Positions 2,319-60,275 of a stretch of 64,000 nucleotides of DNA are shown here, piece after piece. The DNA is from Octopus vulgaris. Its lineage: Eukaryota. The first letter of the stretch is position 1; each line of letters starts with the position of its first letter. The DNA lies in assembly GCA_951406725.2 (NCBI GenBank), contig OX597825.1, positions 2,418,001 to 2,482,000 on the forward strand, in the 5' to 3' direction. Position numbers and translations under genes: made by a program. Below the pieces are notes generated by a model. It was not told the DNA's origin. It worked only from the letters and a program-made list of their open reading frames with translations, and made no database searches.

Positions 2319-2353
2319 ATTTCTGAAGAAGAGCAAGGCTCGAAACGTTAAAT
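2319..2353 (+). ncRNA. Minimal type I hammerhead ribozyme motif (PLE-like), canonical core
   Basis: attt-CTGAAGA-a-gagc(aag)gctc-GAAA-cgtt-aaat: stem I attt/aaat, core CUGANGA at 2323-2329, stem II gagc/gctc, GAAA at 2342-2345, palindromic ACGU stem III, GUU cleavage triplet. Confidence 0.7.
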
Positions 2354-2459
2354 TCTCTTTCCTTCATTTCCTGTGCTTCTGATAATACACAACTTGTACA
2401 ATGACCTCGCGTTCTTGAAGAAAGAAAAATACCTCAATATTATGTAAATAGAGGAAATT

Positions 2460-2663
2460 TATCTATAAAATAATGTTACAATCACTCAATAGTCAAGATA
2501 AAACTCTGAGTTTCAGATGCCGAAGTGGAAATCCACAACACCATCTCTTCGGTTATCTGGCCAGATAACCGAGGAGATGGTGTTGTGGATTTCCACTTCG
2601 GCATCTGAAACTCAGAGTTTTATCTTGACTATTGAGTGATTGTAACATATTATTTTATAGATA
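2460..2663. repeat. Spacerless ~100-bp-arm palindrome with a hammerhead-like motif in each arm (PLE-type inverted terminal repeat)
   Basis: Centre tgg|cca at 2560/2561; arms differ by one substitution and a 2-bp indel. Right arm reads gataa-CCGAGGA-gatg...catc-t-GAAA-ctc-a-gagt-t-ttatc (2564-2624). Confidence 0.85.
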
Positions 2664-2696
2664 TATATATATATGTATGTATATTGGACCTTGGCA

Positions 2697-3346
2697 GGGG
2701 CATTTTGCCGGCAATAATAAAGACACGCGCTGGTTCAGTCCTTTATTATTATTGTTAGTTAATCAATTTTTAGATCAGCCGTTTTTACTAGTTTTTCAAA
2801 CTCAAATGCAAAACACTTTACTGAAAAGTTAATCGTTCAAATGTTCAGTATTGTTCTTGTTGTCATTTCCTTTTTTTTTATCAAGTAATTATTTCATCTC
2901 ATTGTTGCAATCTCTTCAATGACACGTCTCTCTTTAAAACACATACACTCACATACGGATGCACGCAAACACACACGCACATACACACACAAACAAACGC
3001 ACACACAAACACACACACATATACACACACACGTACTGATCTCGGACGAATCCCAACGATGGAACATAAATTCAAAAGAAATGGAAGTAGAGAGAGATGT
3101 GTCACTGAAGAGACTGCAACAAGGCGATGAAATAATTATTTGACAAAAAAAGTAATGACAGCACTAACAATACTGGACATTTGAACGATTAACTGATTGA
3201 ACAAAGTGTTTAACATATGAGTTTGAAAAACTAGTAAAAAACAGCTAATCGATAAATTGGTTAACGGAGTAACTAACCCATTAACTAATAATAACAATAA
3301 AGGACGGAAACAGTGCGTGTCTTTATTAAAACTGGCGATATGCCCC
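2697..3346. mobile_element. Diverged foldback/MITE with ~240-bp inverted arms
   Basis: 2697-2933 is an imperfect reverse complement of 3090-3346 (tttttactagtttttcaaactca / tgagtttgaaaaactagtaaaaa; gttaatcgttcaaatgt / acatttgaacgattaac); a (CA)n tract lies in the spacer. Confidence 0.75.
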
Positions 3347-3432
3347 TCCAAAGTTTCAATACTAATTCTTTCAACACACCATTTCACATCAAGAATCTTG
3401 CAAACCAAATACAAATACGGAGTATATATATA

Positions 3433-4115
3433 TTGGGTCATCCCATTAACAATGCAGTTTTTTTATACTTCTTTATATTTCAAAATTAAGATATACAAAT
3501 CTCCTTTTATATCTTCTTCCTTTTCTACAATATTCTTCCATCTATCTGGTAGACTTGCAAGGCACCTCTTCCAAAAGTCACTTGCCTGTGACGAAAAATC
3601 TCCTCCAGTACTGTTCTGACTTCGACTACAGAATCCATATTTTCCCGCCAAAATGATTTTGAAGACTGCAGAATAAATGACAGTCAGATGGGGCACTGTC
3701 CGGCGAATATGGTGGATGGGGCATACTTTTCCGATCAGACTGCTCCAGCCTTTGGAATGTTATCCTCGCTGTATGTGGCCGATCATTATCCTGATGGAAG
3801 AACACCTTTCGTCTTGAAATCAAAGATGGTCATTTCTTTTTCTAGCGCTGACTTAAGCCGCCCTAGCTGTTCACAGCAGATCCCGTTTGTTATCGTTTGG
3901 TTTGGGTTTAAATGTTTAAAGTGGACTATCACATCCCACCAGACCTATACCAACACCTTGTATCGGCGAAGACCTTCTTTAGCCGGGGTGCCGGTGTCTC
4001 TCCTTTCTCTACCCACTGTCTTCGGCGTTTTACACTTTCATAGGGAAACCATTTCTCGTCACCAGTCTCTATTCGGCCCAAAGATGGTTCGTTTGTGAGA
4101 CGTGACAGCAAAGAA
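3433..4115 (-). mobile_element. Decayed mariner (Tc1/mariner, DD34D) transposon: catalytic domain pseudogene plus 3' terminus
   Basis: Frameshifted ORFs carry TGDEKW, HQDNDRPH, HPPYSPDSAPSDCHLFCSLQNHF and LPDRWKNIVE; terminus TA|ttgggtcatccca at 3431-3445. Confidence 0.93.
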
Positions 4116-56940: not shown

Positions 56941-56990
56941 GAGGCGCAATGGCCCAGTGGTTAAGGCAGCGGACTCGCGGTCGTAGGATT
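56941..56990 (+). mobile_element. tRNA-derived SINE 5' head (truncated)
   Basis: gaggcgcaatggcccagtggttaaggcagcggactcgcggtcg: A-box/D-arm-like TGGCCCAGTGG, no B box or 3' half. Confidence 0.55.
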
Positions 56991-58849
56991 AGAGCAAATT
57001 GGCGTACAGCTGTTTCCAGTAGTCGTTGTAGGTACATATTAATGCTACTCTCTCTCTCTCTCTCTCTCTCTCTCTCTCTCGTTCTCTCTCTCTCTATTTA
57101 TATATATGTATATCATATGGCAAATATCACTAGAAATGGGAGTCACAGGTGTATTATTGTATGGGAAAAGAGGATGTCACTACACTTGATGGATTGTGGG
57201 TTCGAAATATCCTTATTGGCGGATGGTAATATCTTCCAATTTCACAGGTGGGGCAGTTTCAGATACTAAGGGGTCAACGTAGCAAAGAAGATTTCTGATG
57301 CCCCTTACATGGATGAGCCAAGAGGAAGTGATCTACGAATGTAGTGTTTAAAACTGAAGCGCCAAATGTAATATCAAATATCTCAAAAATAAATTCTACC
57401 CACACAATACGAAATATACATTGGAGAAGAAAATTAATAATGATAAGTTTCCCTCCATTTAACAGTAACCATCGTTATTGTATTCGCAGCGCTCAGGATA
57501 CACTTTACACTTCATTGCCTATATATATATATATATATATATATAAAACATTTGAAATACATAAGCAGACACATGTTTATGTATTTATATACACATATCT
57601 TTCTGTATATATATATGTGGGGGGATGTATTTATATATAGTTGCTATATATACATACATACATATATATATATATATACATATATATATATATTTATATA
57701 TATTAGTGAGATATTTTTATTGACATTTAAGAATTAATCATAGCAGAAAATGCATCAAGCAGTGTCACATTTGCAGAACTTCAGCGACTTTGTAGTAGAA
57801 TATTGAAGCATTTTTTGTCCCTATAATTCGCTGGAACTACGTGATATCAAATATCCACCAAATGCTTCAATCCAATGCAGCAAGGTTGTTAAATTCAATT
57901 CTATATTATTTTTTCATACCTTCCATGAAAAATACCATTTTCTCTTCTGTAACCTGAATTTTCTTCCAAAAGAAATTCTTAAATGTTTAAAGAAAATAAA
58001 AATATTTCAGATTATCAACTGTGAGTCTTCGTCAGAATCGTATTTCTTTTTTCTATCACGTGTTACAAAATTTATTCTTAAACTTTTGTAATTATGAGTT
58101 GTGAAAGAAATTTTGTATTGTGGTTTCTGTGTTTCAAGAACAATATGTATATATGTATATATTCTATCTCTAAAAATAATGATCTTATCTTTATATAAAG
58201 TAAATGCGTAGAACAATTTGGAACAAGTTCAATTGTTGAAGAATCTACTTTCTCATTAAAATTGAGAAAATGACCTCCAGGTTCAAAGTCCCGCTATAAA
58301 GTTGATTATCAGAAATAAATAGAATCTAGCACTGATGTTTTATGAGGAATTTAAAACGTAAGAAAACGCTAACAAGTAAAACAAATAATATCAAATAAAC
58401 GAATCTCGAGAGGTTATTCTTTATTCAGGCAGAATGAAACAACTACAAAATGGCGGCAAAATAAACATATATCCGTAAATAAAACTTAGAAAACAAAATA
58501 TTGCGCAGAATAACTTTTAACCTCTAAATAAAAAAAGAACAAAAAAACATCTAATACATTTAAGATATTGAATGACAAGAATAAATATGAAAGATTTAAC
58601 AAGGAAATTCTATTCCTTGTTCTTTATTCACTTCAAAATACTGTCGTTTCCACATGTCACCTCGTCTCTTCACCATCAGTGTGATTATGTCATCTACAGT
58701 TACTTCGAAACAGCCACATGTCCTACGTGTCATTTGTTGTTAATATGTGATTATGACACACATATTGCCACTTGAAAGATAAATCGGTAAACTCCAATTC
58801 GAAATATTTTGAATCTACAAGGTGACGATCGTTACCACACCGGACAAAG

Positions 58850-59030
58850 TACTTAATGGCTTATATTCCAACTTTACAATCTGAGTCGAAATGCAAACGG
58901 TTTCTATTCTAGCCTTCATCATTTCATGGTTGATGAAATAAGAAATGCCAATTGAGTCCTGAGGCAGATATAATCGACTTATCACCCCTTCCAAAATTGC
59001 TGGCCTTGCACTAAATCTTGAAATTAATGT
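58850..59030 (+). mobile_element. Decayed SINE of the second family
   Basis: ctgagtcgaaat...gccttcatcatttcatggttgatgaaataag...taatcgacttatcaccccttccaaaattgctggccttg, similar to 29790-29960. Confidence 0.6.
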
Positions 59031-59519
59031 TTCGAGCCTTGGAGTGTTCTTTATAGTGATCGTTACGCCTACCGGAGATTACATAACGAAAATAGCTCTC
59101 AATTCATACCCTTCATGCGTAAACACCACTGGATGCTTTATACATTATAGTTGCTGATGCACAATGTCTGAATACAAAATAGAGGATGGCCAAGGCTGAA
59201 GCGACTTTGGTCATAAATGCACTCAATCAGAGCTGTGCTGAGTTCCAACAAAATTAAGACTACTTTAGCAAGTTCGAACGAGGAGCCCTTTACTAGTCTC
59301 CGTGTTTAAAATATAATAGAATTCCTCAAAACAATGGCAACGCAATTGCATACTATTCCTGGTGACTTGACCTGATAAATATGGCAAGTAAGCACAGCAC
59401 AACTAACTTTTATTCAATAAGCGAAAGTCATGAACACAACAGGGAACAAATTTGATTATGTATAGGTTTCATGGGAGCTGACCTGCTGCAAGAGAAAAGC
59501 AAGAACGGCAGCAACTGAT

Positions 59520-59820
59520 GTAGTAGTAGTAGTAGTAGTAGTAGTAGTAGTAGTAGTAGTAGTAGTAGTAGTAGTAGTAGTAGTAGTAGTAGTAGTAGTA
59601 GTAGTAGTAGTAGTAGTAGTAGTAGTGGAGGTAGTAGTAGAATTATTATTAGTATTAGTAGTAGTAGTAGAAGTAGTAATAGCAGAATTATTATTATTAT
59701 TATTATTATTATTATTATTATTATTATTATTATTATTATTATTATTATTATTATTATTATTATTATTAGTAGTAGTAGTAGTAGTAGTAGTAGTAGTAGT
59801 AGTAGTAGTAGTAGTAGTAA
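59520..59820 (+). repeat. Compound (TAG)n-(TTA)n-(TAG)n microsatellite
   Basis: Pure trinucleotide blocks. Confidence 0.97.
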
Positions 59821-60082
59821 ACTGAATGAAAAGTGAGTCTGTTCTGCTGTCCTTAATTTTTGTTAGAAATAACAGTTACATGTATTTCGAATCATGTTAT
59901 AATGCAATGAAAGTGACATATTACATGACGTTGAAAAAGATAACAGTTACGTAGGATAAAATTTCGTAGACTATAAAATCACCTGCGCTTTAGAGAAGGC
60001 CGTCCTTCCTCAAACATTGCTGCAGTCATCCCTTATATATATATATATATATATATATATATATATATATATATATATATAT

Positions 60083-60275
60083 AAAGTTAATCCAAACAAG
60101 AAAACACAGAAAAAAGAGAAAAAAAGAGAAAAAACACAGCAACGCAGGACGTGGAACAATTAAAGTATTATTGACGCTCAGGAAAGAAGGGAAGGAGGGT
60201 TTAACGTTTCGAGCGGAGCTCTTCGTCGGAAACAAGGAGAAGGAAAGATCCCAAGGAGGGAAGACAGAGGAGACA
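60083..60275 (-). mobile_element. Short PLE-like element (family A) with intact hammerhead-like motif at 60199-60233
   Basis: Minus strand gttt-CCGACGA-a-gagc(tcc)gctc-GAAA-cgtt-aaac with perfect stem I gttt/aaac; 3' end abuts (TA)n. Confidence 0.78.

Follow-up and report, generated by a model that had tools for sequence, protein, structure and literature searches.

A stretch of 64,000 nucleotides of the Octopus vulgaris genome (contig OX597825.1, positions 2,418,001 to 2,482,000; hereafter the window) carries ten short motifs that resemble the hammerhead ribozyme, which raises the question of what these motifs are, how they came to be there and whether they cut. A first-pass annotation, made from the letters alone, had read them as belonging to an abundant population of self-cleaving, non-autonomous derivatives of Penelope-like elements (PLEs). 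We find all ten motifs where that annotation placed them (its coordinates being those of stem I or of the core) and conclude that they are real minimal hammerhead-ribozyme folds in short protein-free repeats. The explanation that we favour, with a probability of roughly 65%, is that these repeats are terminal repeats (pLTRs) of several PLE families, copied into TA tracts by the reverse transcriptase (RT) and GIY-YIG endonuclease of full-length elements, and that most copies are predicted to cleave weakly if at all. The window is rich in A and T (GC 27-40% per 2 kb) and dense in microsatellites (119 tandem-repeat rows), with one assembly gap of 100 N at 32689-32788.

Hammerhead folds and their state in the genome

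Self-BLAST with microsatellites filtered out assigns the ten motifs to about four sequence families, as had been proposed. With core nucleotide 3 as the point of reference, family A lies at 2323 (+), 46665 (+), 47880 (+) and 60229 (-), family B at 19751 (-) and 46911 (+), family C at 2552 (-) and 2569 (+), and family D at 56547 (-) and 56582 (+); coordinates of the copies are given in Table 1. Pairwise identity is 74-88% between A copies and 72-84% between B copies, and families C and D each form a palindrome with arms 97% and 94% identical. A type I descriptor made up of YYGANGA, stem II, GAA, a self-complementary stem III, H and a stem I of at least 3 bp found 5 sites in the window, whereas 100 block-wise (local) dinucleotide shuffles of the same sequence averaged 0.02 sites and never gave more than 1. 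With a strict core the count was 1 against 0 in the shuffles, and with the loosest descriptor it was 13 against a mean of 1.93 and a maximum of 6.

The type I order, with three stems, a palindromic stem III and H17, is intact in six of the ten motifs as written and, as regards the stems only, in 56582. Decay of stems or core affects four, namely 46665 (stem I), 47880 (stems I-III), 46911 (stems II-III) and 56582 (G12 to C), and 47880 also has C for U16.1. Each family has a form of its own. In family A stem II has 4 bp and stem III is the palindrome ACGU, and 4/4 copies combine an extra A between positions 9 and 10.1 with G10.1-C11.1; family B, which can be read either way on this point, has U at position 3 and the stem III ACCGGU. 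The stem III ACUCAGAGU is common to families C and D, which differ in stems I and II, with G-C at 10.1-11.1 and an extra base placed before G12 in C, and A-U with the extra base absent in D; their 9-nt stem III could also close as a 3-bp hairpin, and neither has the extra nucleotide after 9. Stem letters thus vary between families with pairing preserved, and position I.1 is UA in six, GC in two and AU in two of the ten motifs.

The core departs from the canonical CUGANGA in all motifs except 2323. Position 4 is C (U4C) in 7/10 motifs, belonging to three of the four families, and position 3 is U in both B copies, with a compensating A8 in one of them; CUGANGA or a published U3 core, followed by GAAA, is found in three motifs (2323, 19751 and 46911). 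The seven U4C motifs are therefore best described as a variant of the PLE minimal type I hammerhead that lies outside the consensus core.

The state of families A and B elsewhere in the genome was assessed from contigs of four public sequencing runs aligned to 46596-46996, a segment with one A and one B copy (13,049, 20,401, 11,244 and 3,131 records). Family A is extremely abundant genome-wide: summed depth over most of it reaches 1-5 million in the three larger runs, compared with 146-172 in the junction bin 46820-46833, and over the family B motif it is about 6,000-106,000, summed contig depth not being copy number and taken here only as 'very abundant'. In all four runs the majority letters replace five of the five stem-breaking letters of copies 46665 and 46911 by pairing ones, that is, T at 46662 (99%) and A at 46693 (84-97%) in stem I of family A, and A at 46928 (90-100%), C at 46929 (91-100%) and G at 46938 (80-100%) in family B. 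At 46695 both C (48-75%) and T occur, each able to pair with G. Since the majority letters restore pairing, the defects of these two copies are private decay and the folds are intact at the level of the family. The variant rows seen number 40, with 12 further rows outside the listing; G12 to A in the A/B alignment stands at 1-9%, and position 4 of family A is split between T (35-43%) and C (57-65% of depth), a split that may be biased toward C as the reference copy has C.

These results bear on whether the motifs are chance matches of a relaxed pattern within abundant repeats. Such a view could draw on the single strict core among the ten, on the lack of any Rfam match at gathering score in the window (at E<=10 no hammerhead was among the 150 of 353 matches listed, which were mostly microsatellite-driven miRNA matches), and on the predicted minimum-energy fold, which was a hammerhead in 0/5 motifs tested. 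It is, however, very improbable in the light of 5 sites against 0.02 in shuffles, of stems restored in the family majorities, and of paired letters that differ from family to family. Genuine chance matches also look different: 49 bacterial matches to a relaxed family-A pattern behave as chance and were used as a control, 3 of them having a YYGA core and 1 a stem I of at least 3 bp.

Two further decayed motifs, overlooked in the first pass, lie in an inverted pair that we call family E (3105+ and 2919-). A candidate single-copy motif at 34385-34451 (-) has a U3-A8 core, a 3-bp stem I, a long-looped 5-bp stem II and the stem III ACCAGUGGU, with TA-rich sequence downstream; it may be a further family or chance.

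Origin of the copies

A TA tract, counted if it had at least 5 units and lay no more than 200 nt away on the 3' side of the motif, accompanies 8/10 motifs as against 16.8% of background positions; counted by insertion unit the figure is 7/8 (binomial p ~2.6e-5). This corresponds to the insertion bias of the Neptune clade of PLEs, a bias that is not specific to Neptune. The two motifs with no such tract oppose each other at 2323-2552, where the family C insertion appears to have cut into the family A copy at 2323. TA flanks the copy at 60229 and palindrome D on either side, and the B copy at 46911 stands behind the TA tract of the A copy at 46665, which fits repeated insertion into existing tracts. 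Of the proposal that the elements 'target or generate' TA microsatellites, the association is thus borne out, and nothing was found in support of generation.

Copies inverted 5' to 5' make up palindromes C and D as well as the older E pair, with arms 27 nt (C) and 45 nt (D) apart on the scale used for the coral pairs below. Each palindrome has an extension on one side, ~42 nt in C and ~65 nt in D, which may belong to the element, each being seen in a single palindrome. The idea that the arms could act as ribozyme dimers has to be given up, because the arms are on opposite strands, so that a transcript holds only one arm in sense, and the transcript of either strand is one hairpin of 85-100 bp (predicted -140 to -169 kcal/mol). 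The family A stem III duplex is predicted at only -1.7 kcal/mol, and no close-set intact pair of the same family and strand is present within the window. A third palindrome at 31998-32317 has arms 82% identical, a spacer of ~60 nt and (TA)26 at its left end, and contains a hairpin followed by GAAA in which no hammerhead core can be read; it is possibly another PLE-type inverted pair.

The window itself holds no protein-coding partner, in agreement with the first-pass description of the elements as lacking an open reading frame (ORF). No RT or GIY-YIG family was matched by Pfam in 150 of 186 filtered frames (at least 60 aa), tblastn with 22 long PLE proteins as queries gave nothing in the window at E<0.05, and a hidden Markov model built from the same 22 proteins reached a best E of 0.34 against six-frame segments of at least 20 aa. 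Family-A patterns had 0 matches in viral contigs.

A partner is found with the same form of motif elsewhere. The relaxed family-A pattern, run over ~1/64 of a metagenome collection, gave 139 matches at 121 loci, 114 of the matches having a YYGA core and 86 of those 114 a stem I of at least 3 bp. We take most of the 121 loci to be one repeat group, probably of coral, because the linked ORF has homologues assigned to Pocillopora and Acropora and because the motif is that published for the Neptune element of A. digitifera (PMC4209133), which is of the family-A form. At 12/121 loci, counting the query locus, the motif is preceded on the same strand by a GIY-YIG-type C-terminus that ends 14-148 nt before it, and three of these twelve have a C4 core. 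The ORF has a Cys linker in front of this C-terminus, and its longer homologues carry RT (PF00078) and GIY-YIG (PF01541) domains; the identity of the 150-aa coral piece rests on these homologues, as Pfam matched it only to zf-BED (E 0.033) and not to GIY-YIG. For 77/90 coral copies with room upstream there is no further upstream similarity to the ORF-linked copy, so that short ORF-less copies are the usual state in a group that has autonomous members, and truncation of autonomous elements can explain short copies. Pairs placed 5' to 5', 9-54 nt apart, occur at 16/121 loci (two from one contig). The coral inversion points cluster in the ~0-25 nt that precede the core, as those of C and D also do (for example L010, L024, L105 and L113), and this cluster may mark the 5' end of the RNA or a site at which RT stalls.

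The inverted arrangement could instead suggest that palindromes C and D are foldback DNA elements, MITE-like (miniature inverted-repeat) or Helitron-like, which move as DNA and whose hammerhead likeness is inherited or accidental. Long, near-perfect inverted repeats at TA sites are what such elements would show, and a MITE-like element is present at 47093-47428. Yet every arm is a complete three-stem motif with stems I and II unlike between C and D, the outer ends of the arms are unequal, and the same layout recurs at the 16 coral loci of a motif linked to a PLE ORF, which together make this an unlikely account. The MITE-like element consists of inverted repeats at 47093-47149 and 47372-47428 (57 bp, 96%) with a 220-bp core between them, at a TA tract.

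A PLE origin of the window families is, on this comparison, likely. The copies could have arisen as follows. The PLE endonuclease would nick AT-rich DNA, and RT would initiate within the RNA, at either of two sites 3' to the hammerhead, so that the 3' end is fixed and a tail is present or absent; copying would then pass through the hammerhead and run off or halt shortly upstream of the core, leaving copies of 100-200 bp, and a second inverted copy joined at the 5' end would yield the palindromes. These steps are extrapolated from published PLE work. For the Anolis PLE it is described that AT-rich DNA is nicked, that RT has two internal start sites on which the optional tail depends, and that uncleaved RNA serves for insertion (PMC11167929); a (TA)n bias, tails on one side only and inverted copies at the 5' end are among published PLE traits (PMC8557442). 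The template in the octopus was likely also uncleaved RNA, because every copy spans both sides of the predicted cut, and an uncleaved template would let U4C lineages multiply with no need of efficient cleavage. The Anolis hammerhead is reported to cut only with protein present and to be dispensable for insertion in vitro (PMC11167929).

The stem III duplex is weak, close intact pairs are lacking and U4C is reported to lower hammerhead activity considerably in vitro, with viroid infectivity still possible (PMC3088659), so that most genomic copies are predicted to be inefficient or inactive as ribozymes. Metazoan minimal motifs are likewise described as cleaving weakly or not at all as monomers (PMC4209133). 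Of the first-pass reading as 'self-cleaving non-autonomous PLE derivatives', what holds is thus the type I minimal folds, the palindromic stem III, the several families, the abundance and the likely PLE origin, while self-cleavage and non-autonomy are conjectural.

Several points weigh against terminal repeats copied by full-length elements. No copy of families A-D is joined to an ORF within the window, and an exact family-A 22-mer had 0 matches in metagenome contigs. The coral link covers the form of the motif and not the element family, and a TA tract lies downstream of 0/102 coral copies, so that the TA bias of the window is not common to both. The extension of palindrome D, at ~65 nt, is longer than the published PLE tail of 30-40 bp. 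The variant table consists of per-position frequencies of A and B and says nothing on covariation within families or on C and D; stronger conservation of core than of flank among copies could not be shown from it. Lastly, units of family A measure ~200 bp and show a preferred 5' end: the copies at 47806 and 60306 begin in the same alignment column, 74-78 nt before the core, and in loose ends of three DNA-type runs before 46602 mixed AT-rich or TA sequence is followed by a short start as at 47806 and (aligned) 60306. Joints of a 3' end to a new 5' start were, among those listed, single contigs of depth ~30-60. A preferred 5' end with rare head-to-tail joints also fits a dedicated non-autonomous unit.

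That alternative, which is the one the first-pass annotation had adopted, holds that the families are dedicated non-autonomous PLE derivatives resembling short interspersed elements (SINEs) or non-LTR retrozymes, with master copies of their own, possibly cleaved or circularised, and mobilised in trans by PLE protein. Besides the common start column and the few contigs with head-to-tail joints, it can call on the depth of family A (1-5 million against 146-172 at the neighbouring junction) and on the publication of pLTR-derived retrozymes with monomer copies (bioRxiv 10.64898/2026.07.22.740005). We nevertheless hold it to be doubtful. Retrozymes are described with canonical type I motifs, tandem arrays and efficient cleavage (PMC7229834), whereas the window has no tandem array, its motifs are minimal and mostly U4C, its units end away from the cut site, and the listed head-to-tail joints have low depth; moreover, an autonomous element whose transcription began in its pLTR would probably yield a fixed 5' end as well. 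The derivative reading could apply to family A, with C and D having arisen by truncation.

Returning to terminal repeats of PLEs, U4C appears to be a trait of the lineage rather than decay. Decay at CpG as the source of the position-4 C/T split is disfavoured, with G to A at position 5 absent among the variants listed and with C4 marking a coral subfamily: C4 is found in 31/32 matches of that subfamily and in 4/65 of the others (97 filtered matches; Fisher p 7e-20, copies not being independent). A more far-reaching and quite tentative idea is that U4C is the inherited master state of the most successful octopus PLE lineages and, separately, of a coral subfamily, acting as a ribozyme that is deliberately damped or dependent on protein, or as a fold retained to bind RT and not to cut, with family A a dedicated ~200-bp non-autonomous TA-targeting unit in very high copy. 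If so, motifs in the U4C master state would escape CUGANGA descriptors, and the inverted pairs would seed many long hairpin RNAs. Octopuses edit their RNA heavily from A to I.

Coordinates and neighbouring repeats

Table 1. Copies, hammerhead motifs and extensions in the window (nt; strand '.' for palindromes).
Positions	Strand	Feature	Details
2304..2417	+	Family A copy (self-BLAST)	Divergent, ORF-less; (TA)17 on 5' side; 3' part lost at family C extension
2319..2353	+	Family A hammerhead	Sole CUGANGA of the ten; stems I and II 4 bp each, additional A behind position 9, stem III ACGU; predicted cut after 2349
2418..2459	-	Extension of ~42 nt	Left arm only of palindrome C; putative PLE 'tail'
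2457..2666	.	Family C palindrome	Pair of copies inverted 5' to 5' (97% identity); (TA)7 at right end
2496..2558	-	Family C hammerhead, left arm	U4C; 6-bp stem I, ACUCAGAGU as stem III; predicted cleavage after 2502
2563..2625	+	Family C hammerhead, right arm	U4C; 6-bp stem I; predicted cleavage after 2619
2682..2936	-	Family E inverted copy	Older, 77% identical to 3088-3361; decayed motif, core position 3 at 2919
3088..3361	+	Family E copy	Motif with CUGANGA core at 3105; 5-bp stem I, palindromic stem III AUAAUUAU, stem II decayed
19669..19867	-	Family B copy	Hammerhead 19719-19754: U3-A8 pair, stem I 3 bp, stem III ACCGGU; 3' end adjoins (TA)28
46601..46793	+	Family A copy	Flanked by (CA)16 and short TA tract; hammerhead 46661-46695: U4C, two private changes break stem I
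46819..46992	+	Family B copy	Follows immediately on TA tract of the A copy; hammerhead 46908-46943 (+): U3 with G8, private changes break stems II and III; 3' end adjoins (CA)16(TA)n
47806..48004	+	Family A copy	Begins at preferred 5' end of family; decayed hammerhead 47876-47910; 3' end adjoins (TA)34
56410..56474	-	Extension of ~65 nt	Left arm only of palindrome D, up to (TA)33; putative second 3' end (tail)
56475..56654	.	Family D palindrome	Pair of copies inverted 5' to 5' (94% identity); TA tract at each side
56514..56551	-	Family D hammerhead, left arm	U4C; 4-bp stem I, 3-bp stem II, ACUCAGAGU as stem III; predicted cleavage after 56518
56578..56615	+	Family D hammerhead, right arm	U4C plus G12C; predicted inactive
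60085..60306	-	Family A copy	(TA)5 at 5' end, (TA)25 at 3' end; hammerhead 60199-60233 (-): U4C, every stem intact

Other repeats share the window. The C-terminal fragment of an ORF of the long interspersed element type, which we take to be CR1-like, lies at 42853-43209 (+) and is 91% identical to a protein labelled Octopus vulgaris, the next matches being at 45-53%. A direct repeat of ~150 bp (13450-13605 and 14469-14618) is 94% identical over a distance of 1 kb, and a 45-bp palindrome at 45561-45605 stands shortly past an (ACAT)19 tract. A dispersed family with 72-88% identity, likely a SINE, occurs at 719-1048, 11269-11466, 12812-12882, 37686-37803, 43459-43895 and 61627-61900.

Comparison with known systems

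The overall phenomenon, solo minimal hammerheads of PLE ends strewn over animal genomes, has been known since 2014, when Cervera and de la Pena described thousands of them per genome as 'probably related to truncated PLEs' (PMC4209133). The octopus motifs share with the metazoan PLE pLTR motifs presented there a short stem I, an extra nucleotide after 9 (in family A), G10.1-C11.1 and a palindromic stem III, as well as the occurrence of many families per genome, mostly as solo copies, with opposite-strand pairs and with U3-A8 and U3-G8 cores; the family E motif at 3105 resembles a type published for an Aedes PLE in the same source. Families C and D differ from consensus minimal hammerheads in their 9-nt stem III and in having no extra nucleotide after 9.

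With Neptune-clade PLEs, as Craig et al. (2021, PMC8557442) portray them, the window has in common the inverted 5'-truncated copies, a tail on one side, a bias to microsatellites or (TA)n and a hammerhead in the pLTR. Neptune is characterised there by a C-terminal GIY-YIG and a Cys linker; the window families are ORF-less and may belong to Neptune, Poseidon or Hydra. The Poseidon element PAc of Anolis (Frangieh et al., 2024, PMC11167929) is the source of the mechanism outlined above, which its report demonstrates in vitro for one autonomous lizard element, whereas the window is known from its sequence only.

Non-LTR retrozymes, in the accounts of Cervera and de la Pena (2020, PMC7229834) and of Li, Clavereau and Pollet (2026), are likewise non-coding, 150-450 bp long and related to pLTRs, with a type I hammerhead and monomer copies. 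They are set apart there by tandem arrays, canonical motifs, efficient cleavage and circular RNAs, as against the solo or inverted copies and minimal, mostly U4C motifs seen here. No array of head-to-tail units is present within the window, and the canonical motif with contacts between loops 1 and 2 has no counterpart in motifs with a stem I of 3-6 bp, an extra nucleotide and an altered core.

A repeat annotation of O. vulgaris published in 2026 reports 893 SINE families without classification and 31 Penelope-like families with recent activity (PMC13282606); ribozymes are unmentioned in the text covered, and its supplement or Zenodo library may hold the families described here. The literature searched contains no report of such motifs in octopus or other cephalopods, nor of U4C in PLEs (Lunse et al., 2017, outside this coverage, may treat it). 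What is new here, in that no printed report was found, is the U4C core variant in motifs of PLE type. All 56 representatives given in PMC4209133, none of them from a cephalopod, have U4 (53 CUGA and 3 UUGA), as the descriptor required, while C4 is present in 7/10 motifs of the window, so counts made with descriptors that demand CUGANGA would overlook most window copies. If U4C is indeed a lineage trait, the U4 and C4 sister subfamilies would offer a natural comparison, and one that bears on whether PLE hammerheads need to cut at all.

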